DNA of 64,000 nucleotides from Methanonatronarchaeales archaeon (GTDB lineage: Archaea > Halobacteriota > Methanonatronarchaeia > JAANXF01), in NCBI GenBank assembly GCA_018263395.1, contig JAANXF010000004.1, forward strand, positions 3,840 to 67,839. The letters run 5' to 3'. A program made the position numbers and the translations under genes. Below the pieces are notes generated by a model. The model was not told the origin of the DNA, made no database searches, and was given only the letters and a program-made list of their open reading frames with translations. This document shows positions 2,215-62,902 of this stretch, in pieces (the first letter of the stretch is position 1; each line of letters opens with the position of its first letter).

Positions 2215-3480
2215 CTACTTCGGTTTTACGTCGATACACTGGCCCGCGGCCACCGTCTGACCCATGTCCCGTATCGCGAAGCGCCCAATCTGCGGGATCT
2301 CGTCCACCCTCTCTATGACCAGGGACCTCTGCGGCTTCACCTGGATCACCGCGGCGTCTCCGGTCTTCAGGAAGTCGGGGTTCTCCTCCTCCACTTCGCC
2401 GGTCCGGGGGTCCAGCTTCTGCTTCAGCTCGGTGATCGTGCAGGCGACCTGGGCCGTGTGGGCGTGGAACACCGGGGTGTACCCCGCGGTTATGGCGGAG
2501 GGGTGCTCGAGGACGATTATTCGGGCGGTGAACTCGTCCGCGACCGTGGGCGGGTCGTCGGCCGGTCCACAGACGTCGCCGCGCTTGATGTCGTCCTTTC
2601 CCACCCCGCGGACGTTGAAACCGATGTTGGCCCCGGGCCCCGCCTCCGGAACCTCCTCGTGGTGCATCTCGATCGTCTTGATTTCCCCGGAGGCGTCGGA
2701 CGGGTTGAACACCACCTTGTCCCCCGGCCTCGCGACCCCGGTCTCCACTCGACCGACCGGTACCGTTCCGATTCCGCTTATGGAGTAGACGTCCTGTATC
2801 GGGATCCTGAGAGGGAGCTCCGTGGGTTTCTCCGGTTCGTGGAGGGCGTCCATCTCGTCGAGCAGAGTGGGTCCGTCGTACCACGGGGTTTCGTCCGATT
2901 CCCCGGAGACATTTCCGCCCTGCAGGGCCGAAACGGGTACGTACTGCACCCGGTCCGGTTTGAAGCCGACCATCTTGAGGAGCTTGTCGACCTCCCCCTC
3001 GACCTCCTCGTATCTGGACTCGTCCCAGTCCACGAGGTCCATCTTGTTGACGGCGACTATGAGTTCCTCCACGCCCAGCGTCTTGGCCAGGAAGACGTGC
3101 TCCTTCGTCTGGGCCATTACGCCGTCCGGCGCGGCGACCACGAGAACGGCCGCGTCGGCCTGACTGGCCCCGGTTATCATGTTCTTCACGAAGTCCCGGT
3201 GACCCGGTGCGTCGATAATAGTGAAGTAGTAATTGTCCGTGGTAAACTCACGGTGAGCTATATCGATGGTTACGCCCCTCTCCCGCTCCTCCTTCAGGTT
3301 GTCCATAACCCACGCGAATTCGAAGGTGCCCTTCCCCTTCTCCTCCGCCTCTTCCCTGTACTGCTCTATTATGTGCTCCGGAACCGCTCCTGTCTCGTAG
3401 AGTAGTCTCCCCACGAGCGTGGACTTACCGTGATCGACGTGTCCTATGATTGCCAGGTTCATGTGCGGCTTGTCCGCCAT
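2215..3480 (-). CDS. tuf: Translation elongation factor EF-1alpha
   Basis: [30 protein letters not shown] GTPase motifs; 421 aa. Confidence 0.99.
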
Positions 3481-53198: not shown

Positions 53199-53993
53199 AT
53201 GGCCGACGTGGAGCTCAAGAGGCTGCAGGACCTATACGATAACGGGGTTCTGACCGACGAGGAGTACCAGCGGCTCAGGGAGAGGGCCGAAGAGGTGCCC
53301 GAGAGGGAGGTCCTGTCGACCGGCATGCACCTCCTCGACACGAGGCTCAACGGGGGAATCCTCAGCGGCTCCCTGGTTGCGCTTATCGCCGACCCCCTCG
53401 CCATGCCGGGGATGTTTCTCTACCACTTCTGCGAATCGAGGAGGACCGTCTACTTCACAACCGACAGGAAGGCCGAATACGTACGGCAGGACATCGCCTC
53501 GTCCAACTTCGAACCGAAAGAGCTCCAGTTCGTGGACGTGTACAGCCACCACTACCTCGACGACCGCGGTGACCTCCGTACCGGGGGAGATTACGAGGAC
53601 CGCAGGACCCTCGATTTCGTAATGGACCGCCTCAAAAGGATGAGGGTCGAGGAGGAGGGGATAAACATCGTATTCGACAGCTTCTCGTTTTTCGAAAACC
53701 TCGAGCTGCAGACGCGACAGGTACACCTCCTGCTGAACTACATCTACGAGACAAGCAAGGACGTAAACGGCCTCACCTACCTGCTGAGCAACTCCTCGAC
53801 GGAGGATTTCAACAACGCGATGGAGAGCACCTGCGACGTCGTCATGCGCGCAGAGGTCGATGAGGCGGAGAAAGCCATGAAGAAAGTGCTCTACATCCCA
53901 AAGCTCAGGGGCGGCACGCCCCCCGACACCGCGGTCAAGTACGCCGTGGAATCCGACACCGGGATAAAGGTGGACACCAGCAGGCTCGTTTAG
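53199..53993 (+). CDS. SHOCT-fused RecA/KaiC-like (RAD55-type) ATPase, degenerate P-loop
   Basis: N-terminal ELKRLQDLYDNGVLTDEEYQRLR; LSTGMHLLDTRLNGGI..GSLVAL, IVFDSFS, PKLRGG; Walker A replaced by ADPLAMPG. Confidence 0.75.
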   Translation: MADVELKRLQDLYDNGVLTDEEYQRLRERAEEVPEREVLSTGMHLLDTRLNGGILSGSLVALIADPLAMPGMFLYHFCESRRTVYFTTDRKAEYVRQDIASSNFEPKELQFVDVYSHHYLDDRGDLRTGGDYEDRRTLDFVMDRLKRMRVEEEGINIVFDSFSFFENLELQTRQVHLLLNYIYETSKDVNGLTYLLSNSSTEDFNNAMESTCDVVMRAEVDEAEKAMKKVLYIPKLRGGTPPDTAVKYAVESDTGIKVDTSRLV

Positions 53994-54137: not shown

Positions 54138-54399
54138 ATGGGGATACGCTACCACAGCTATCGCCTTAGCGGTACTCATAGGCGCGATAGCCACTATCCC
54201 GACGGCCGTGGCCTCCGAGATAGGAGACGTCCGTGGCGAGGTTTAGACCGAGCTGGGGGGGCGTATCCGGACAGACCGTCGTGCTCAAAAAAAACAAGTC
54301 GGCAACTCCTACGTCGAGTACGCCCCGGAGAAGACGGGTGACAGCGGTACGTTCTCGTTCCCTGTAGAGGAACGGAGTAGCTACCTTGTAACGTTCTAA
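54138..54399 (+). pseudogene. Decayed secreted-protein gene
   Basis: Signal-peptide-like YATTAIALAVLIGAIATIPTAVA, in-frame TAG at 54244-46, frame changes at G/A runs; restored reading GEV*TELGGVSGQTVVLK..GDSGTFSF...YLVTF resembles a small beta-sandwich. Confidence 0.5.
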
Positions 54400-54725
54400 C
54401 GTTCGTATGAGACAGCCTGCCCTACTTTAAACACGTGACGTTTAGAGGAACCGATACTGAAGTAAATTTCCAGACAAAGTACGTCGTCATAGACGGCGGG
54501 ACAGGGGGCAGGGTTACCCTCGAAGGGAAGCCCGTAGCGGGGGCGGATGTCACCGTTTTCCGTAGCGGCGAGGTAGTAGACACCGGGCTTATCCTCCATG
54601 AACTCCTCGATTAGCCGCGTCTTCCCGACCCGGCGCCTGCCGTAGACCGGGACGAAACCTCCCGCTGCGTAGGCTTTTTCCAGTGCCTCCATCTCGCTCT
54701 CCCGGTCGAGGAACTTCATACCCAC
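54396..54725 (-). pseudogene. Truncated archaeal AAA ATPase (ATPase_2/DUF234-type)
   Basis: MKFLDRESE..L, VYGRRRVGKTRL then loss of similarity after ~55 aa; full-length family members are several hundred aa. Confidence 0.75.
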
Positions 54726-54845
54726 CCATCAACATCAAACAATTTAAAAGTTGTCAAATATAGAATAAACAACTCAAGCTTGTTATCCGGTAACAATTCG
54801 GCTTCGAGACCGGCTCCTTAAACGCTTTATCGCGTTTCAACCGAT

Positions 54846-54932
54846 GTGGTCGTGGCCAAAACGGAGACAGAGAGCCCGTTCGTGATAACCTCTTTCTTTA
54901 CCGACGAGGTTAAAAGCGGGACACCTGTCTGA
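54846..54932 (+). pseudogene. 3' remnant of the toxin gene that is intact at 60170-60469
   Basis: VVVAKTETESPFVITSFFTDEVKSGTPV* vs LVVVKVEVDSPFVITSFFTDGIKSGAPV*; DNA aligns without gaps to 60383-60469. Confidence 0.85.
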
Positions 54933-55276
54933 GCCGAGGATGATGGAGGCGATTTCACCGGGAAGACTTCTCTCGATGTCACGCCACAACCGGTTCCGGT
55001 AGCTCTTAGGTCGTTTCAAAGCCCTTGAAAGTAGGGAAATCCGCCTCCGCGTTCAGGCGAGAAAGGTTGACGGGTTTCATCTTCTCAGCCCTTTTGAAAC
55101 GGGCTCTCTGATTGGGCAGGACTCACTTTGGAAAGAGGTACATTCACAGATGCTGATCTGGACGACGGAACTCTCGTGACCGTCAAACTCATCGACACCG
55201 AGAGCGAGCAGATAGTCTTCACCAGCGAGGCCACGGCGAAGTAACGAAGAACTCAGACTCAAGGTATCAAAAAAAC

Positions 55277-55354
55277 AAAAACGCAACCCCTTCTATTACT
55301 CACGACGGGACGGTTGGGGCTGCCGCCGCGTGTGGGGGACCGGTGCGCCGGTGA
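55277..55354 (+). repeat. TA-array spacer copy A (5' part)
   Basis: aaaacgcaacccc..ttactcacgacgggacggt..gccgc..gtgggggaccggtgcgccggtg. Confidence 0.75.
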
Positions 55355-55441
55355 TGAGTCTGTCTCGAGAGTCGAAAAGGGTCGGGAGGATGGGCGCAAC
55401 GAACCTCTCTCGCCTCATCGTTCGGGTGGTGATTCCTATCT

Positions 55442-55849
55442 TCAGGGCTTGCCGTTGATGAGGGGTGGGGCGGTTCCTGGGTGGGCCGGTTTAGTAGGAG
55501 ACCTGCTCAGCCCTGCTTCTTCCGGGTCAGGAAAAGTTTCCGGGGCAGGTGGTCCTGGGAGGGGCAGAGTGAGTGAGTTTTTCGCGACGAGCGATGCGAG
55601 GTCGTACGCAAGGGTCCTGTTGTCCGGAAAGTACAGGACTTTCAGGTTCCCGTACTCCTCTTCGTCCAAGAAGTCGGAGTCGTTGGTGGGGAGGACGTAG
55701 TTGTTCTCAGCAGCGTATCGCGCTATCTCTGCGTCGGTCGTTCCGGTGCCGAGTTCGTCTCTTACGTGGACTCCGACGTTTCCCTCTTTTTCGAGGTATC
55801 TGGTCACCTGTGGATCGACGTTCTCGTCGCAAAGCACGCGGTACGCCAT
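55442..55849 (-). CDS. DUF5615 PIN-like toxin, probably frameshifted near its C-terminus
   Basis: LCDENV, D.EI..YA, TNDSDF; removing one A from the run at 55578-55582 gives ..PSQDHLPRKLFLT..* ending 55507. Confidence 0.8.
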   Translation of the reverse strand: MAYRVLCDENVDPQVTRYLEKEGNVGVHVRDELGTGTTDAEIARYAAENNYVLPTNDSDFLDEEEYGNLKVLYFPDNRTLAYDLASLVAKNSLTLPLPGPPAPETFPDPEEAGLSRSPTKPAHPGTAPPLINGKP

Positions 55850-56140
55850 TTACGCGAGGTCTTCCAGCGTCTTGGCTCCCTTCTCTAGGGCTTCTTCCTC
55901 GCGGCGCCGTATCTTCTCCCTCACCTCGGCCATCTCGTCAGGGTGGTCGTGGTAGTAACTGAGTGCCCTGTAGACGTCGGCTATGTCGAGGTCGTAGCGA
56001 TCCGCCACCGTCTTTGCGGACAGGCCTCGCCCCTCTACGAGTTCCGCCACCTGCCGGACGGTGATGCGTCTCCCCTCAAGCCGGGGCTCGCCCCCCATCA
56101 CCTCTTCGCTTTTCACGATCCTCACTACTTTTTGGGGCAT
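55850..56140 (-). CDS. DUF433 antitoxin
   Basis: VMGGEPRLEGRRITV, A..YDL...DVYRALSYY. Confidence 0.9.
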   Translation of the reverse strand: MPQKVVRIVKSEEVMGGEPRLEGRRITVRQVAELVEGRGLSAKTVADRYDLDIADVYRALSYYHDHPDEMAEVREKIRRREEEALEKGAKTLEDLA

Positions 56141-56143
56141 TAT

Positions 56144-56269
56144 CTAGAAGTAGGGCGCTCTTTCCCATAACTCTTCCTCAGAAGTAAGAGGACGGTTGAT
56201 GAATGGCCTCAGCTTCGAAGGGGTGAGGTCGGTGAAGGGGAAGGGTATAAGGACAAATTTGCCCTTCAT
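56144..56269 (-). pseudogene. Truncated MazF/PemK toxin
   Basis: MKGKFVLIPFPFTDLTPSKLRP = PemK N-terminal motif; similarity lost after ~22 aa; ATG overlaps antitoxin stop (ATGA). Confidence 0.75.
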
Positions 56270-56452
56270 CCGGGCCGTGCCTTGATGTCCTCTTCGGAGT
56301 AGAGCTCGGGCTCCTCGCTCAGGAAGTCGTGGAGGGACTCCTCCGATGGTTTCGTGAGTTCCCCTCTCCTCGAGAAGTTCGTCCACCTTGAGGTTGAGCT
56401 CGGCGAGGCCCTTTCGGATTTCCCTTAGCTCCGACTCGATACCCGCCATCAT
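56266..56452 (-). pseudogene. Frameshifted antitoxin partner of MazF
   Basis: Removing one base from the run at 56361-64 gives MAGIESELREIRKGLAELNLKVDELLEERELTKPSEESLHDFLSEEPELYSEEDIKARPG*. Confidence 0.65.
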
Positions 56453-56555
56453 TTACCCTCTTCTTTAAACATGTCCTTAAGCTTTCCAGATGGCGGTTCA
56501 CCGCATTAAAAATAGCCAGCGACAAGCTGATAACCGACACAGACCTCCGGATACA

Positions 56556-56749
56556 GTAAACCCGGAAAAACGAAACCCTTTTTCTTTTTTTAGTCACTCA
56601 TGACGGGACGGTGGAGGGCTGTCGCCCTGGGGAAACCGGTGCGGCGGTGCTGTTTAAGGCGCTGGGGACCCGGGTTCTAACCGTCGTGGGTAGCCTGTCC
56701 GTGTGGTTCGATGGGTGGTGGAGGGACTTCTTCCTGGAGGTCTCGTGAG
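56556..56749 (+). repeat. TA-array spacer copy B (near full length)
   Basis: gtaaa..gaaaaacgaaaccc-T tract-actcatgacgggacggt..gtcgccct..accggtgcggcggtgctgtttaaggcgctgggga..gtgggtagcctgtccgtgtggttcga. Confidence 0.9.
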
Positions 56750-56858
56750 GCGGTTAAGCCCCCATCGCAGCGGGCGGCGGCCAGGCGAAACTACGGTTAA
56801 AAACGATTTAGTGTATCTCCACACTAAGCTATATCTTGGTCGGGCGCGATTGTGGCGT

Positions 56859-57101
56859 ATGTCGGAGGTACGGGTGGTGGGCGAGGGCAAGGTTTCGGGC
56901 AACCAGGCCTCCATACCCGCCCAGGTCAGGAACCGGCTCGACATCCGGGACGGCGACGTCGTGAGGTGGAAGGTGGTGGACGGGGAGCTGGAGGTGGAGG
57001 TAGTGCACCGTCGCCGGGGCGTCTTCGAGGACTTCCGGCCGGGTGAGTCCGAGGAAGAGGTCGACAGCGTGGATGAGCACGACTCCTTCGGTCTGGGTTA
57101 G
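56859..57101 (+). CDS. AbrB/MazE/SpoVT antitoxin (VapB)
   Basis: KVSGNQASIPAQVRNRLDIRDGDVVRW. Confidence 0.88.
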   Translation: MSEVRVVGEGKVSGNQASIPAQVRNRLDIRDGDVVRWKVVDGELEVEVVHRRRGVFEDFRPGESEEEVDSVDEHDSFGLG

Positions 57102-57102
57102 A

Positions 57103-57534
57103 ATGGCGCAATCTGCCACGGTGGACACGACGGTTCTTTACGCCGCGGGAAACAGACGCGCCACGTTCCACGAAGATGCCCTGGAAATCGTGAAGGCCGC
57201 GGACCGTGGAAACCTGCCCGTGCTGCGCATACCCGACGCCGTCCTGCTGGAGACGATGAACGGGCTGCACAGGACCGTCGGGCACGGGAAGGCCGTGGAC
57301 GTGATGAAGCGTCTCCAGGAGGGGGACGGTTTCGGGATTGAGAGGGGCTCCCTGGCCGTACTGACTGCTGGGATCCAGCTCTTCCAAGAAATAGAGAGGC
57401 TCTCCCTCGGGGACGCCCTGGTAGTCGCGGACGCGAGGCACAACGAGGTAGAGTACCTCTACAGTTTCGACGGCGACTTCGACGGAATCGACGGCATAAC
57501 CCGTTTAAACACGCCGGATAACCCTTACCGATGA
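57103..57534 (+). CDS. VapC PIN-domain toxin
   Basis: VDTTVL, LLET, LSLGDALVVA, LYSFDGDFD. Confidence 0.9.
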   Translation: MAQSATVDTTVLYAAGNRRATFHEDALEIVKAADRGNLPVLRIPDAVLLETMNGLHRTVGHGKAVDVMKRLQEGDGFGIERGSLAVLTAGIQLFQEIERLSLGDALVVADARHNEVEYLYSFDGDFDGIDGITRLNTPDNPYR

Positions 57535-57544
57535 TGCGGTAGCC

Positions 57545-57694
57545 GTCGCCCTGTGGGGACGGATGCGCCGGTGCTGTTTGAGGCCCTTGGTGACCCGATT
57601 TCTAACTGTCGCGGGTAGCCCGTCCGTGTGGTTCGACGGGGGGTGGAGGGGGGCTTCCCGGAGGTCGTTGGCGAGGGGAGTGAGGGGCTTCTTC
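57545..57694 (+). repeat. TA-array spacer copy C (3' part)
   Basis: gtcgccctgtggggacggatgcgccggtgctgtttgagg..gggtagcccgtccgtgtggttcgacgg..gaggtcgttggcgagggga..gggcttcttc. Confidence 0.88.
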
Positions 57695-57822
57695 GCGAAG
57701 ATGCTTGCCGATTGATGCGGCCCTGACCACTTATCGCCGGGTTGAGAACCCAGTTAGGCCGATTAAAATTCTCTGAAACGGGTGGGGAAATCTTCTTAAC
57801 GACGTGGAAGGTAGTTAACGTG

Positions 57823-58110
57823 ATGCCTCTGAGCGTGGAGGACGTCGCCAGCGCGACGGGCGAGTCCGAGGAGTCGATTCTGCACAAGGGCCTTGGGTCC
57901 TATCTGGACAGGGAGCTCAGGGAGGCCGGTGTCCGGATAAACGAGTTAAAGAAGAGGTACGGGGTGGAGCGTCCCTCCGAGCTCGAGGAAAAAATCGAGG
58001 GGGGGGGTTCGGTCGATGAGCACCCGGCCTGGGAAGAGCTGATAGAGTGGGAGAACCTGGAGAAGAGAATCAGTCGCCTGAAGGAGCTCTCGGAGTCTAC
58101 GGAGCCCTGA
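57823..58110 (+). CDS. Putative antitoxin (partner of DUF6516/TumE-like toxin)
   Basis: L.KRYGV..PSELEEKI..G...EHPAWEELIEWENL pattern; overlaps the toxin gene. Confidence 0.65.
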   Translation: MPLSVEDVASATGESEESILHKGLGSYLDRELREAGVRINELKKRYGVERPSELEEKIEGGGSVDEHPAWEELIEWENLEKRISRLKELSESTEP

Positions 58111-58447
58111 AGAGAAGGGCACTTGAGGCATTCCCGGGCATCGTGTCCAAGGCAGTCGTGGAGAGGGCTCCCGGAGACACCCCGAGGAACCTCCGTATCT
58201 TCCTTAATGATGGAAGTTTTCTGGACGCGTGGGTTTCAACCTCTTCCGGAAAGTACTCATTTCACTGGCAGTCAGAAGACGGCGTCGTACGGTTCGAAAC
58301 GCGCCGCACCACGACGTGGAGACGTTTCCCCACCACGTCCACATCGACGACGAGGTGGAGGCAAGCCCGTTAAAAGGAAACTTCGTGGAGGACTTAGAGC
58401 AGGTCATGAGTCATCTGGAGAAGAGAAGGACACGAGAATCAAAGTAA
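58090..58447 (+). pseudogene. Frameshifted DUF6516/TumE-like toxin (start approximate)
   Basis: LRIFLNDGSFLDAW..GKYSFHWQ..VVRF then, one base missing at ~58297, NAPHH..TFPHHVH..; restores the R.DNAPHH..FPHH.H motif. Confidence 0.75.
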
Positions 58448-58642
58448 AACATCGGTAATGTGGCCGGGAGAAACGAAACCCCTTCTTTTTTTTTAATTAC
58501 TCATGACGGGGCGGTGAGAGGTGTCGCCCTATGGGGACCGGGGCGCCGGTGCTGTTTAGAGGAACCGGTGACCGGGTTCTGGCCGGGTCCTAACCGTCAT
58601 GGGTAAACTGTCCGTCTGGTTCGACGGGTGGTGAAAGGGACT
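58444..58642 (+). repeat. TA-array spacer copy D (full length)
   Basis: gtaaaacatcggtaat..gaaacgaaacccc-T tract-aattactcatgacggggcggt..gtcgccct..accggggcgccggtgctgttta..atgggtaaactgtccgtctggttcga. Confidence 0.9.
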
Positions 58643-58767
58643 GGATGTGTCGGTGCGTGGAGACGTGATTCGAGGAATTTGAGCTGTCGGGCCGGCTGCG
58701 AGGTGGTAGGGGGAGGCGTATTTATTGTTTGCCGTGTCAAGTTTGGGTTAGAGCGGTGCCGGGGTCG

Positions 58768-59079
58768 ATGATGCACGAAGAGGTGTTCGAGGAATTCGTC
58801 GAGGAGGCGAAGGCCGAGCTCGGCGAGGGCCTCGAGAGACTGGTCCTCTACGGCTCCGTGGGGAGGGGAGAGGCGACTCCTCACTCGGACATAGACATCT
58901 ACGCCGTCGTGCGGGACGAGGAGGAGAAGGAGAGGCTGCTGGACCTCGCCTACGAGGTCGGTATCCTGAGGCACGGTACGCCGATAATGCTCGTCGTCAG
59001 GACCGGGGAGGAGGAGGCCGATGCGGGCGACACATCCTTCCGGAGAGAGGTGGAACGTACCGGGAAGGCACATGTCTGA
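58768..59079 (+). CDS. Minimal nucleotidyltransferase (MNT) antitoxin
   Basis: LYGSVGRGEATPHSDIDI. Confidence 0.9.
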   Translation: MMHEEVFEEFVEEAKAELGEGLERLVLYGSVGRGEATPHSDIDIYAVVRDEEEKERLLDLAYEVGILRHGTPIMLVVRTGEEEADAGDTSFRREVERTGKAHV

Positions 59080-59461
59080 GATCAAGGACCTGTTCGAGCT
59101 CAGCGAGCAGGCGCTCGACGACGCCGTCCTGCTGAGCGGGAGAGGTTCGTTGAGGGCCGCTCAGAACAGGATTTACTACGCCCTGTTCTACGCGGCGAAG
59201 GCGGCTCTGTTGTCACTCGGCGAGGAGCCGGTGACCCACAGAGGCGTCGTGGCCCTTTTCGGTCAAAAGGTCGTTAAGAGCGGTCTGGCGAGCAGGGAGG
59301 ACGGGAGGTTCCTCGCCGATGAACAGAGGAAAAGATACGAGGCGGACTACGAGCCAGAAACCGCCTTCGAACCCGAAGAGATAGAGACATCCATAGAGAG
59401 GGTGCAGGCATTTATCGGAGGAATGGAGGACCTCGTTAATGAAGGGAAAGGAGACACGTAA
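59072..59461 (+). CDS. HEPN-domain (UPF0332-like) toxin
   Basis: NRIYYALFYAAKAALL..TH.GV..F, R..ADY. Confidence 0.88.
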   Translation: MSEIKDLFELSEQALDDAVLLSGRGSLRAAQNRIYYALFYAAKAALLSLGEEPVTHRGVVALFGQKVVKSGLASREDGRFLADEQRKRYEADYEPETAFEPEEIETSIERVQAFIGGMEDLVNEGKGDT

Positions 59462-59505
59462 ACTCGAAGCGGGGACTTCCACTCGAAGAAGGAGCGTGAA
59501 GCAGG

Positions 59506-59598
59506 GTAAAACATCGGTAATATGACTGGGAAAAAACCTTATCCCTTTCTTTTTTTTTTAAATTACTCACGACATGACGGGACGGTGAGGGGTGTCGC
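59506..59598 (+). repeat. TA-array spacer copy E (5' half)
   Basis: gtaaaacatcggtaat..gggaaaaa..ccc-T tract-aattactca..tgacgggacggtgaggggtgtcgc. Confidence 0.88.
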
Positions 59599-59689
59599 TG
59601 GAGGATTGACGACGTGCTCACGGGCCTCGACGCCTGCACGAGGCCAACGCGTACCCCGGGAGGCGTAGGCGGGCCATCAGGGAGGAGAG

Positions 59690-59742
59690 AAGTCGGTTCA
59701 CCGACTTACTGGAGTCGCCGTTAACGGCGTGGATTTTTTTTT
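59690..59742 (+). terminator. Hairpin + palindrome + T9 tract
   Basis: AAGTCGG-TTCA-CCGACTT (59690-707), CGCCGTTAACGGCG (59716-729), T9 (59734-742). Confidence 0.5.
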
Positions 59743-59922
59743 GTCGAGGGAGGGGTTTAGGGTTGCGTTCAGGTCTTTTTTGGTGTGGGGGTTCGAGGAG
59801 GGAGTGTGGGCGGTCTTTCACCGTTTTATGACGGAGTGCTTACCGATAGGTGGGGGGGCCGAGGAGGCCGGTATGTTGATTTGTGAGGGGGCTTGGGGAT
59901 ACGGGATTCAGGACGCAAGTGA

Positions 59923-60035
59923 TGTTTAAGGCGCTGGGGACTCAAGTCTTAATTGTTATGGGCAGCCTATCCGTCTGGTTCGACGAAGAAGGGGACTTTC
60001 TGGAGGTCGTGAGCGAGGGGAGGAAGGGCTTCTTC
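59923..60035 (+). repeat. Spacer copy F = promoter and 5' end of the intact DUF2283 gene
   Basis: tgtttaaggcgctgggga..atgggcagcctatccgtctggttcga..ctggaggtcgtgagcgaggggaggaagggcttcttc; TTTAAG 33 nt before ATG. Confidence 0.9.
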
Positions 60036-60170
60036 CGCGACCTCGGGAACGGCGTTTTCGAGAGGGTGGATGAAGAAGGCAACACGATAGGCTTCGCTCT
60101 TCTAAACGTCAAGGAGAGAAAGGAGAGGGACATCCCGTTCGATGCCAAGTTTGAGAAGGCGGTTTCTTAG
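59958..60170 (+). CDS. DUF2283 antitoxin-like protein
   Basis: LSVWFDEEGDFLEV, D..G..IGF..LN. Confidence 0.85.
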   Translation: MGSLSVWFDEEGDFLEVVSEGRKGFFRDLGNGVFERVDEEGNTIGFALLNVKERKERDIPFDAKFEKAVS

Positions 60171-60469
60171 TGCAGGTCCTGAGGGATTTCAGCGGGAGAG
60201 ACATCCGTTTGACCGATGAGAGGCGGGAACACATCGAGCGCCGGCCAGAGATGGAAGGCCAGGTTCGGAGAATCGAGGAAACCTTGGTACAGCCTGACGA
60301 GGTTAGGAAAAGCGATCAAGACCCATCCGTCTACCTGTACCACAAGAGGTATGGGGAAACCCCTGTAACTGAGAAGTACCTTCTGGTCGTGGTCAAAGTG
60401 GAGGTAGATAGCCCGTTCGTGATAACCTCTTTCTTCACAGACGGGATTAAAAGCGGGGCACCCGTCTAA
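60170..60469 (+). CDS. Putative RNase toxin (PBECR/DUF4258-like), GTG start
   Basis: IRLTDER.EHI...P, I.ETL..PDEV, LLVVVK, FVITSF; coupled to DUF2283. Confidence 0.75.
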   Translation: MQVLRDFSGRDIRLTDERREHIERRPEMEGQVRRIEETLVQPDEVRKSDQDPSVYLYHKRYGETPVTEKYLLVVVKVEVDSPFVITSFFTDGIKSGAPV

Positions 60470-60512
60470 ATCTCGCCCTAGTGAGGTCGGTCAGGCCCGA
60501 GGCATCGTACAT

Positions 60513-60917
60513 TCAGGTTTTCGCCAGCAACTGCTCATTGAACCATTTGAGGGTTTCCCTGTAATCGAGGAACTCGGTTATCACTCGGGCCTCGTAGCTC
60601 GCCCTGTCCACGTCGCCCTCGTAAACCAGCCGCCCCGTCTTCACGACCTCGTACCTCAGCTGGGGCGGCGAGTGGTTCAGGGCCTTTACGTCGAACTCGA
60701 ATCCGTAGCCGAATTTTTTCTCCAGCTCCCTCGCGAGCTCCATGCAGAGCTTCATCGCGGCGTAGCTGTCCGGCTCCCCTGAGAGCAGCGCGGCCACGTC
60801 CACGTCCTCGAAGCTTCCGCGAAGGGAGGAGCCGTAAACGTAGCCCAGCTCGACCTCGTCGAACCCGGAGAGCACCTCGCCAATCTGCTGCAGCTCCTCC
60901 TCCGAGAGCCCGTCCAT
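60513..60917 (-). CDS. MNT nucleotidyltransferase (MntA-like), orphan
   Basis: YVYGS....EDVDVA, DVK.LN.SPP.LRYEVV..G. Confidence 0.85.
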   Translation of the reverse strand: MDGLSEEELQQIGEVLSGFDEVELGYVYGSSLRGSFEDVDVAALLSGEPDSYAAMKLCMELARELEKKFGYGFEFDVKALNHSPPQLRYEVVKTGRLVYEGDVDRASYEARVITEFLDYRETLKWFNEQLLAKT

Positions 60918-60986: not shown

Positions 60987-61958
60987 CTACAGCCTCTCCA
61001 TCTCCTCGAAGGGAACGAGGCCGCTGATTTCCTCGGTGGGTGCGTCTATCCCCCTCTCGTTGAGCGCAGCGGCCGTGTTTATACCGGCGCTCATCGCCAC
61101 GCCGAAACGGTCCATGCCGACGGGGATGCCCAGGACGGACCGGTTCGGGAGGCCCACGTCCATCACCCCCCCAATTCCCAGGGCCTCGAGCTCCTCGACG
61201 ACCCGCACGACCTCCTCCTGCGCCGAGCGGGGGATGACCCTGAGGTTCCCGAGCAACCTCCCGTCCCCCTCCATCGCCTCGCCGACCGAGGTCATGCCGG
61301 TCTCCATGAAGACCTCCACGGGGTCGACCGACGAGCCTTCGTAGCTTATGGCGTCGGTGAACCGGCTGAACTCGCCTCCGGAAACCTCCACGACCCCGCC
61401 GAACCTCGGCGTTATAGGTACCCCCCTCTTCAGCAGCACGCCGTCCATGGTCATCGAGCAGAGGGTGGCGATTCCCACCCTCCCCGCCGACACCGGTCTG
61501 CCCGCGAGCAGCTCCCCCTCCCTCCTGACGGAGACGTGGGGACTCACCGCCATCCCCGACTCGAAGACCTCCCGAATCGTGGAGAGCGCCTCGTCCTCGT
61601 CCTCCTCCCCCACGAAGGTCGTGTTGACCACCGCCTCGCCCCTGCCCGTGGAGGGGTCGAAGCGCGAGCTGTATATTTTCTCCTCGACCCTGCTTATCAC
61701 GAAACCGATTCTCCGGCTCACGAGGCCGCGTGAGAGCTCCTCGACGCCCCTCTCCGTGATAGTGCGGCCGGCGTACCCGTGCTTCTCGGTCAGGCCCCTC
61801 TCGTCCATTATCCGGAAGTAGTACCTGACCGCCCGCTCGCCTATGGTGACCCCGGCCCTCCTCAGTGAGTCGGCCACCCGCTTGGCGCCGAGGGGTTCCT
61901 CGGAGTCCCTCAGTATGCGGAGTATCTCGATAATTTTTCGCTGATTCCCCTCGGCCAC
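60987..61958 (-). CDS. nrpR: NrpR-like regulator (wHTH + one DUF128 domain)
   Basis: EILRIL..S.EPLGA, ERAVRYY, GR.IT..G, TLCSMT.DGVL..GVP, PRFGG, GINTAA; likely GTG start 61958. Confidence 0.85.
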   Translation of the reverse strand: MAEGNQRKIIEILRILRDSEEPLGAKRVADSLRRAGVTIGERAVRYYFRIMDERGLTEKHGYAGRTITERGVEELSRGLVSRRIGFVISRVEEKIYSSRFDPSTGRGEAVVNTTFVGEEDEDEALSTIREVFESGMAVSPHVSVRREGELLAGRPVSAGRVGIATLCSMTMDGVLLKRGVPITPRFGGVVEVSGGEFSRFTDAISYEGSSVDPVEVFMETGMTSVGEAMEGDGRLLGNLRVIPRSAQEEVVRVVEELEALGIGGVMDVGLPNRSVLGIPVGMDRFGVAMSAGINTAAALNERGIDAPTEEISGLVPFEEMERL

Positions 61959-62041
61959 CGGCAATAGGTTGCCTCCAGAAGCCCTTAAATAGTTCCTCTG
62001 CCGCCTCCGGAAACGTTTAAGGGACTGAACCTCTTTTAGAG

Positions 62042-62902
62042 GTGGTTTCAATGCGGCTGCCGGACCTGATGAAGCTCGACGAGAGACTGCTGATCGCGCC
62101 GCCACTGCTCCTCATCCTCTTGGCCGTCTCGCTTCTCGGGTACGGATACGTCACCACAGGCACCCCTCTCGAACTGGGAATGGACTTCAGGGGCGGGGTC
62201 GCGGTGACCGTCACCACGGAGGAGGCCCCGGAACAGGTGGCCGCAGGTTTCGAGGAGTTCGGCGTGGTGGGTGTACGGGATCTCCCCGACGGAGCGCTGA
62301 TACAGTTCGGGCCGATTGACGACGCCCTGAAGGAGGAGCTGGAGAGCTCGGTCTCCGCCCGCTACGATACGTACCAGATAACCGCCGTCAGCGAGGTCTT
62401 TGGCTCCGAGCTGCAGGGTCAGGCACTCACGGCCTCAGTTATCGCGTTCCTGGCCATGGCAGGTATGGTTCTACTCCTTTTCAGAAGGTTGTTCCCCGCG
62501 GGAACCATCGTCGTGGCTGCCCTGGGAGACATCCTCGTGGCGGCCGGATTCGTGAGGCTTTCCGGACTGCAGCTCTCCCTCGGAACGGTGGCCGCTCTCC
62601 TCATGCTCATCGGTTACTCCGTGGACAGCAACGTCCTGCTGACCAGCAGGATGCTGCGGGGGAGGGGGACCGTCAGCAAGAGGTTCAACGGTGCGTTCCG
62701 AACCGGCGCGACGATGGCGGTCACGACCCTGTCGGCGATTCTGGTGCTGGCCACGGTGTCCTACGTTGCGGGCATGACCATCCTGTTCGAAATCACCGCC
62801 GTCCTGTTCGCCGGACTGGTGGCCGACGTGTTAAACACGTGGTTCCTTAATGGCTCGGTTCTCAGGAGCATTCTCGTCAGGGAAGGAGTGGAGGTCAGTT
62901 GA
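62042..62902 (+). CDS. secF: Protein translocase subunit SecF
   Basis: LGMDFRGG, FGSELQ, LMLIGYSVDSNVLLT, multiple TMs. Confidence 0.93.
   Translation: MVSMRLPDLMKLDERLLIAPPLLLILLAVSLLGYGYVTTGTPLELGMDFRGGVAVTVTTEEAPEQVAAGFEEFGVVGVRDLPDGALIQFGPIDDALKEELESSVSARYDTYQITAVSEVFGSELQGQALTASVIAFLAMAGMVLLLFRRLFPAGTIVVAALGDILVAAGFVRLSGLQLSLGTVAALLMLIGYSVDSNVLLTSRMLRGRGTVSKRFNGAFRTGATMAVTTLSAILVLATVSYVAGMTILFEITAVLFAGLVADVLNTWFLNGSVLRSILVREGVEVS

Follow-up and report, generated by a model that had tools for sequence, protein, structure and literature searches.

A 7-kb interval of archaeal DNA, running from a KaiC-like gene (53199-53993) to nrpR (60987-62105, minus strand), contains an island (about 54.8-60.95 kb) whose content, according to open reading frames (ORFs) and Pfam, is almost exclusively toxin-antitoxin (TA) modules. 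The spacers between five or six unrelated predicted TA pairs contain worn copies of the start of one antitoxin gene of the DUF2283 family, its promoter and first codons. We favour, at what we would call an even chance, the explanation that the island is a recombinase-independent accretion array, in which the cassettes carry a homologous handle and recombine repeat by repeat. Unless a contig is named, positions refer to the window, the whole 64,000-nucleotide (nt) stretch that was analysed (C17:3840-67839), which belongs to a 1.17-Mb metagenome-assembled genome (MAG) with 63% GC and a completeness of 78%. The host is an uncultured archaeon of heat-vent type, the sole member of its own family among 199,900 species representatives.

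Full alignment of the spacers resolved five modules, called here T, L, M, R and X. The T-part ends in a T7-T10 run followed by ATTA, L is CTCAYGACGGGRCGGTGRGGG.TGTCGCC, M is ..GGGGACCGGTGCGCCGGTGC, R extends from a TATA-like box through the codons for WFD, and X comprises a G-rich stretch and a gene remnant. The evidence on relatives came from contigs of 0.9-3.3 kb, found by exact-protein look-ups through 90% clusters, and in particular from L076 (SRR31824750) and L077 and L078 (SRR11308165 and SRR11308164, respectively). The repeats (copies A-F) and the cassettes between them are arranged as follows.

54847-54932, plus strand: left-edge remnant of a second PBECR2-type toxin gene, its 3'-terminal ~28 codons, 86% identical, ungapped, to 60384-60467, the 3' end of the intact PBECR2 toxin.
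55269-55354, plus strand: copy A, with a degenerate T-part, L (CTCACGACGGGACGG...) and M (GGGGACCGGTGCGCCGGTG), without promoter or gene part; identity to B is 20/24 in L and 24/35 in M.
55442-56140, minus strand (reversed): cassette 1, DUF5615/PIN_10 toxin and DUF433 antitoxin (Pfam, 8e-13 and 1e-13).
56561-56750, plus strand: copy B, all five modules, with T-tract 56579-56591, L from 56597, M, box 56651-56659, GTG start 56686, WFD, the G-rich replacement and a gene remnant to about codon 20.
56862-57534, plus strand: cassette 2, AbrB/MazE-type antitoxin and PIN toxin (Pfam), 91.5% identical in L077.
57535-57766, plus strand: copy C, which lacks T-tract and L and whose first base, within the L/M junction, follows the PIN stop codon immediately; M is followed by a mutated box, GCG where the start codon would be, WFD and the G-rich stretch, then by a gene remnant reaching about codon 28 (57698) and by filler up to 57766.
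57767-58464, plus strand: cassette 3, MJ0235/DUF7342-type antitoxin (57826-58110) and frameshifted TumE toxin (58047-58447) (Pfam), with limits set by 81% homology to contig L089 and the 3' flank GTAAAACATCGGTAATGTGGCC / GTAAAACATCGGTAAT included.
58465-58673, plus strand: copy D, all five modules, with T-tract, L, M, a mutated box 58553-58562, an 11-nt internal duplication, ATG 58599, WFD, the G-rich stretch and then CTGGATGTGTCGGTGCGTGGAGACGT.
58771-59461, plus strand: cassette 4, MNT nucleotidyltransferase and HEPN (Pfam), 94-96% identical in L076.
59495-59596, plus strand: copy E, a scrap of TumE-cassette 3' flank, T-tract and L only (modules T and L); homology ends at GGTGTCGC.
59597-59883, plus strand: decayed cassette 5, a remnant of the 3' end of an MJ0235-type antitoxin, then T-runs.
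59884-59957, plus strand: upstream region of F; its TATA-like box, TGTTTAAGG, occupies 59923-59931 and precedes the ATG by 33 nt.
59958-60469, plus strand: intact DUF2283 antitoxin (59958-60170) and PBECR2 BECR-fold toxin (60170-60469) (Pfam); copy F consists of R and this intact gene.

In copies B, C and D the right part of the spacer matched the DUF2283 gene. The TATA-like box reads TGTTTAAGG in B (56651-56659) and in F, and is altered to TGTTTGAGG in C (57575-57583) and to TGTTTAGAGG in D; gene-like codons begin about 27-35 nt downstream of the boxes. They read GTG GGT AGC CTG TCC GTG TGG TTC GAT (VGSLSVWFD) in B, GCG GGT AGC CCG ... (AGSPSVWFD) in C and ATG GGT AAA CTG ... (MGKLSVWFD) in D, as compared to ATG GGC AGC CTA TCC GTC TGG TTC GAC (MGSLSVWFD) in F. 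When F from the TATA box to codon 34 was used as reference, the local alignment scores were 41, 53 and 24 for B, C and D (z = 22, 29 and 10.5, respectively), and 0/1000 dinucleotide shuffles (score 9.3 +/- 1.5) attained any of them, while copies A and E showed no gene-derived part in the comparison with F (z = 2.0 and 0.4). Directly after WFD, GAAGAA of F is replaced by GGGTGG in B, GGGGGG in C and GGGTGG in D. Since all 30 DUF2283 homologs compared (60-78% identity) are uniform at this place, with WFD(E/K)(E/K/D)G and invariant D9 and G12, GAAGAA is the ancestral state, from which B, C and D depart by a derived G-rich stretch. The initial annotation had proposed a decayed DUF2283 promoter and 5' end in the three copies, the G-rich replacement, and a TATA element intact in B and F and altered in C and D, and these observations were all borne out; it had also claimed that C keeps the segment coding for KGFF, and C can indeed be aligned to the gene as far as GGGCTTCTTC, but encodes RGFF there.

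The intact gene at 59958 scored 22.2 bits against PF10049 (E 1.6e-4), just below the 23-bit cut-off, while most of the 30 homologs carry this family, and the overlapping downstream gene matched PF18810 PBECR2 at 1.6e-8; we read 59958-60469 as a predicted pair of DUF2283 antitoxin and BECR-fold toxin. In F and in two homologs of 66-70% DNA identity, L011 and L084, the ATG is preceded at 29-33 nt by a TTAAG(G/T) box, whose sequence and spacing fit, from what is generally known of archaeal promoters, a TATA box for a leaderless transcript.

In the spacers only the right half is gene-derived, and the left ~110 nt (T-tract, L and M) are upstream flank. This flank, whole or in part, is found in copies A-E and not in F, whose upstream region gave an unconvincing 11-17/32 identities with M of the other copies. 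In L076, 91% identical to the window over cassette 4, this cassette is joined in one piece to T-part, L, M and R, and these to a DUF2283 pseudogene of full length, which runs from W7 to the stop codon, with frameshifts, and adjoins nrpR directly; the ortholog of copy E continues there through M and the promoter into the full-length pseudogene. Its sequence after WFD, GACGAGGAGAGGTTCTTCCTGGAGGTC, is intermediate between F and B. The spacers thus derive from another, diverged DUF2283 copy with its own flank, and not from the present promoter region of F. The initial description of the spacer as DUF2283 promoter plus 5' end is correct for the right part, and has to be amended for the left flank and for the source copy, which is not F's own.

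The 3' end of a second toxin at 54847-54932 indicates that at least one further DUF2283-PBECR2 module was once present here. This could recommend a history in situ, in which tandem DUF2283-PBECR2 modules decayed, unrelated TA cassettes inserted independently and the 5' stubs were left by chance. The surviving toxin end, the full-length pseudogene copy in L076 and the different lengths of the stubs are all in line with it, as is the fact that codons 1-9 of B, C and D differ from those of F mostly synonymously (GGC/GGT, CTA/CTG, GTC/GTG), suggesting that the source was once a working paralog. However, each insertion must then have removed the rest of a module and ended near the T-tract of the next copy, and neither the strain difference at cassette 3, bounded by equivalent positions of two repeats (see below), nor the recurrence of the cassette-plus-stub pattern with other genes is explained, so that we consider this history unlikely.

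As the initial annotation had supposed, cassettes turn over at the repeats: L077 and L078 contain the end of B, cassette 2 and then one repeat, without cassette 3. The single repeat of L077 follows window copy C up to ..GGGGGCT and window copy D from GGATG.. onward, and the cassette 3 junction in the window is located directly after GGGRCT of both C and D, that is inside the repeat. Its left part is 97% identical to C (R module) and its right tail, orthologous to the right tail of D, is ~88% identical to D, whereas the identity between C and D is only ~73%. In L077 the repeat is followed by an intact HepT-MNT pair, which in the window is found, truncated, at the far right edge of the island; beyond this pair, L077 has cassettes that in this genome are located on C9 and at C17:1651-1840. 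In a further contig, L079, the DUF433 part of cassette 1 adjoins AglB/STT3.

The repeats themselves exchange patches between strains. The M module of copy C in L077 is identical to window B at 28/32 positions and to its own ortholog at 23/32, and the X module (post-WFD) of copy B in L077 resembles window C. Identity between strains is 64-81% in the T, L, M and X parts, as compared to 88-94% at third codon positions of the adjacent genes, and the gene remnants end variously at about codon 12, 20 or 28, or run to full length (~70 codons). Repeats that change faster than neutral point divergence fit recombination substrates and not selected regulatory elements.

The latter, namely terminator-plus-promoter insulators or structured RNAs that organise expression of the array, seem highly improbable to us. 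It is true that B, D, E and the L076 copy retain T7-T10 runs, that B, L076 and F have an unaltered TTTAAG box, and that the box stands at leaderless-promoter distance, as in L011 and L084. On the other hand, the box mutations of C are common to C and its ortholog, the start codons are lost in C and in copy B of L077, C has no T-tract, divergence exceeds that of synonymous sites, and there is neither an Rfam match nor a consistent fold. Only the T-tract appears to be maintained, and the T-runs could terminate upstream transcripts; the poor conservation otherwise argues against selection on promoter function of the repeats. The mini-ORFs of the spacers end after 11-34 codons, and every cassette has its own AT-rich box upstream.

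No consistent hairpin was found either: B folded with z = -0.46 and 0.03 (two strands, against shuffles), and D reached z = -2.7 by means of one 13-bp inverted repeat, TTACTCATGACGG / CCGTCATGGGTAA (58497-58509 and 58594-58606), which would pair the L module with the start-codon region and is weaker in B and broken in L076. An RNA gene or riboswitch was discarded as identity of the repeat on these inconsistent folds and on the lack of an Rfam match in 54500-60500 (gathering score; E <= 1).

Under the accretion model, the handle would be a piece of one DUF2283 copy, a diverged sibling of the intact 59958 gene, and would reach from its upstream flank (T-tract terminator, L and M) across the promoter as far as codons 10-28. 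Recombination between handles would account for gain, loss and reshuffling of cassettes: a cassette excised with one handle may dock at any homologous handle, or at the gene itself, by a Campbell-type single crossover or by homology-anchored insertion in which the other end is illegitimate, and every docking event would add one gene-start stub. After insertion the stubs would be neutral, and they may decay, be trimmed to unequal lengths and exchange patches by gene conversion. A cassette-plus-handle intermediate, circular or linear, and a reliance on general homologous recombination are inferred features of this model. Cassettes 2, 3 and 4 are each placed between 100-200-nt direct repeats, and their ORFs are TA components only. 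No recombinase ORF was found in 46-64 kb (ORF list and Pfam), and in the genome as recovered (78% complete) PF00589 matched one tyrosine recombinase only, at C6:784-1284, whose 411 aa include a Zn ribbon.

The spacer repeat is confined to this locus, since blastn with word size 7 detected it nowhere else in the genome, and nothing comparable was found in thirty GTDB relatives. Comparison of the genome with itself revealed at least two more arrays with other spacers. At C18:35696-39238 (L086:3216-6739), four copies of ~126 nt, 62-90% identical and spaced 855-1282 nt apart, correspond to the last ~40 codons of a gene for a membrane-anchored protein (..GKDGKYDPENGATFLVAALAGLLVLGGVYAWRRGG*), with PIN, PIN_3+AbrB and HTH+PIN-like cassettes between them. 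At C17:1763-1885 and 2981-3103 (L082), 2 kb upstream of the window start, direct repeats of 123 nt, 83% identical, flank an RHH+PIN_2 cassette and represent a gene 3' fragment (..CVDRVPVRMETGGWIEGRV..). As the other arrays use unrelated spacers, one sequence-specific enzyme cannot serve all of them, while homology can. Around these arrays we also noted two TumE-type cassettes upstream of the C18 array, flanked by another repeat of 70 nt (L086:1145 and 2188), and a DUF433+DUF5615 pair adjoining the RHH+PIN_2 cassette of L082, whose gene fragment travels with TA cassettes in L077 (2240-2428).

These spacers bear on the origin first proposed for the island repeats, that is att-site duplications left by an integrase. 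In such a site-specific integration, the enzyme would be supplied in trans or have been lost, the att core would lie in or near the DUF2283 5' end and the spacers would be attL/attR-type duplications, as they occur in integron arrays or in tandem islands at tRNA genes. A fixed site is suggested by the cassette 3 indel, whose junction follows GGGRCT immediately in C as well as in D, by the clustering of breakpoints at the L/M junction GGTGAGGGG(T)GTCGCC (right end of E, left end of C and left limit of F), by two independent breakpoints between ATTA and CTCA, and by the 13-bp inverted repeat in copy D; for some pairs, moreover, there is a likeness between the L core and the G-rich stretch that follows WFD (p = 0.003-0.02). 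Yet breakpoints occur in at least four places (the T/L, L/M and M/R junctions and codons 12-28), most pairs show no significant similarity of L to X, the inverted repeat is broken in L076 and B folds no better than shuffles, no GTTRRRY/RYYYAAC pair is present, and no integrase is found in or beside the island. With such ragged boundaries, no recombinase in the island and unrelated spacers in other arrays of the same genome, we judge duplication of an att site by an integrase to be unlikely, and the L-core similarity, significant in few pairs only, was not retained as a candidate att core.

In copy B the G-rich stretch after WFD resembles its own L core (GGTGGAGGGCTGTCGCCCTGG vs GGTGGAGGGACTTCTTCCTGG, 56610-56630 vs 56716-56736, p = 0.0035), and D shows the same resemblance (58505-58521 vs 58622-58638). 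Such likeness could result from intra-repeat conversion, or from chance in G-rich DNA. A contig from SRR10589502 (L010:1-28) starts with AATATTAAAGAAGTTTCGTCAACCACTAT where copy E has its T-tract, the join being at 59566/59567, exactly between AAATTA and CTCACGAC. This sequence is the end of a dispersed repeat of ~120 nt without Rfam match, of which the genome holds at least 9 copies (C6:36115-36237, C9, C13, C14, C15 and C22), all ending in ..CACTATA.

Whether B, C and D form a group of their own was less clear. Over TATA..WFD the pairwise identities are star-like (B-F 79%, B-C 80%, C-F 69%, C-D 73%), and a maximum-likelihood tree of this segment resolves only F against the rest (96/94) and C with its ortholog; the segment is too short to resolve B, C and D, and the tree was not taken as proof of their grouping. 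The G-rich replacement is common to the three copies and is seen neither in F nor in L076 nor in any homolog. The putative grouping rests on this replacement and on the L-M flank, which is also found in A, E and L076. Given that repeats exchange patches, the shared G-rich change may come from gene conversion and not from one decayed ancestor. The initial annotation had the inner copies sharing derived changes and spreading as a unit from one already decayed copy, to be verified by a tree of the copies with DUF2283 homologs. The shared derived change is there, and the tree does split off F; by R identity, however, the three inner copies stand no nearer to one another than to F, the tree separates nothing beyond F and the pair of C with its ortholog, and unequal lengths and strain mosaicism allow gene conversion as a second reading beside spread as a unit.

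Several facts weigh against recombination between handles as the origin of the array. The contigs of the source population (SRR10589498-506) are 99.85-100% identical to the window, differ from it only in a G7/G8 run and in one junction to the dispersed repeat, and, taking all Logan contigs together, show one same array, and the evidence for turnover comes only from three short contigs of ~91%-identical relatives. The lone mapped indel junction is placed at the extreme right edge of the shared stretch, where a fixed site, too, would place it, and the cassette 3 event cannot be polarised as insertion or deletion. The present repeats are 72-84% identical, with identical runs of <=15 nt, which makes efficient homologous recombination between them doubtful now. 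The excised intermediate was not seen in the assembled contigs that form our evidence, and in a MAG that is 78% complete a trans-acting recombinase could be missed.

The features at the two ends of the island, both of which are eroded, are the following.

54396-54725, minus strand: truncated archaeal ATPase_2/AAA_16 gene, only the first ~50 residues of the domain, with other debris alongside.
60485-60917, minus strand: right-edge cassette, Polbeta/MNT nucleotidyltransferase (60513-60917, Pfam) and the first ~10 codons of a lost HepT (60485-60512); the latter remnant reads MYDASGLTDL vs MHDYSGPTDHL in the intact HepT-MNT pair of L077 (89% identity).

Some of the cassettes are themselves damaged. 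The DUF5615 ORF of cassette 1 (55442-55849, minus strand) matches its profile only to position 61/110 and then continues in a Pro/Gly-rich tail running towards copy A, while an intact paralog of 111 aa occurs at C17:1106-1441; the cassette 1 toxin is probably truncated at its 3' end. In cassette 3, TumE is split over two frames with Pfam matches to both halves, the L089 homolog being intact (101 aa), and the toxin appears to be inactivated and the antitoxin kept. The MJ0235-type antitoxin of this cassette contains a G8 run (58000-58007), which is G7 in another assembly (L074), where the protein is cut to 72 aa, and at which the Logan contig L009 breaks; this difference may reflect a slippage-prone on/off variation or an artefact of assembly or sequencing. 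The remnant in cassette 5 matches C18:35139-35187, encoding ..AIKEEKSRLTDLLESL* (blastn, 84%, E 1.7e-8). The motif TTACCGAT or its complement occurs in four island copies (57525, 58451, 59513 and 59840) of 22 genome-wide (0.13 expected), each near a cassette-repeat boundary, and ACCGATGT is found at 54840. It was rejected as a boundary motif, as two of the copies are homologous by descent, one lies in the TumE flank (L089) and no extended consensus is seen elsewhere.

Searches for a parallel in other genomes gave little. A DUF2283 profile scan of Joint Genome Institute (JGI) metagenome contigs returned 61 loci, none with the L/M flank or repeated stubs, and a scan of genome contigs with the DUF2283 protein gave no match. 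Two candidate parallel stubs were dismissed, L070 as a frameshifted gene and L071 as a chance match. The L motif CTCAYGACGGGRCGGTG gave >119 single matches in high-GC bacteria, where we estimate ~280 by chance in 596 Gb, and was uninformative. TA arrays spaced by gene-end stubs were not found described in our literature searches.

TA modules are among the most mobile of prokaryotic genes and are mostly without a mobility gene, so their movement is largely unexplained. The present locus offers a readable record of it, as the sequence at the junctions can be traced to the start of a resident antitoxin gene, with its promoter and 5' end. A further step would be a general, integrase-free docking, in which TA cassettes, in this lineage and perhaps in many archaea and bacteria, carry a copy of a host gene end as portable handle and any genome with that gene serves as landing pad; we regard this as possible, and rather doubt it. 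If it were true, arrays would grow at a gene as integrons do, without attC or IntI, forming an unrecognised and widespread cassette platform, and the movement of small addiction modules without mobility genes would have a concrete answer.

Among known systems, the pdif (XerC/D) modules of Acinetobacter plasmids are small, include many TA pairs and combine repeated recombination sites with a varying order. In the island spacers no 28-bp dif-like site with inverted arms was recognised on the general features of dif sites, without comparison to an archaeal dif model. Tandem integrative elements at the end of a tRNA or protein gene also leave an intact target at one end and partial copies between units, but the inserts of the island are ~1 kb without integrase, and its partial copies exceed a plausible core and are of unequal extent.

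The attC sites of integrons are imperfect palindromes of 55-140 nt, which fold single-stranded and carry R'' (RYYYAAC) and R' (GTTRRRY) boxes. The island resembles integrons, and clusters of attC sites lacking integrases (CALINs), in its ~1-kb cassettes, a genome-specific repeat, richness in TA genes, a varying order and, as in a CALIN, the lack of an adjacent integrase. It differs in that the spacers have neither an attC hairpin nor R''/R' boxes and are instead the promoter and 5' end of a gene, in that the cassettes have their own AT-rich upstream boxes, one being inverted, and ragged boundaries, and in that other arrays of this genome are spaced by other gene fragments. For archaeal integrons the defining features are attC sites and IntI (Ghaly et al. 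2022, PMC9668308), and the architecture described here, CALIN-like as it looks, does not qualify as a CALIN. On the handle model, an integron-like architecture could arise without integron machinery, which would bear on the annotation of arrays in metagenomes.

The remaining comparison is with insertion accompanied by long target duplication. Restriction-modification (RM) units without mobility genes insert with long, variable duplications (Nobusato et al. 2000, as cited in PMC2853133); the direct repeats, >30 bp, stem from duplication of part of the target and often extend over the end of a gene, and the related genome without the insert holds a single copy of the repeat (Furuta, Abe & Kobayashi 2010, PMC2853133). 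Likewise, the island has addiction-type modules between direct repeats of >30 bp and no mobility gene. It is different in being iterated 4-6 times at one site, in its TA cargo, in its archaeal host and in its repeats, which are 100-225 nt long, 72-84% identical and more diverged than the flanks between strains. Because of this divergence they would not be fresh target duplications, but either imported with the cassette or old. Should the handle model hold, long target duplication would reach beyond the single insertions of RM units in bacteria and include iterated TA arrays in archaea.

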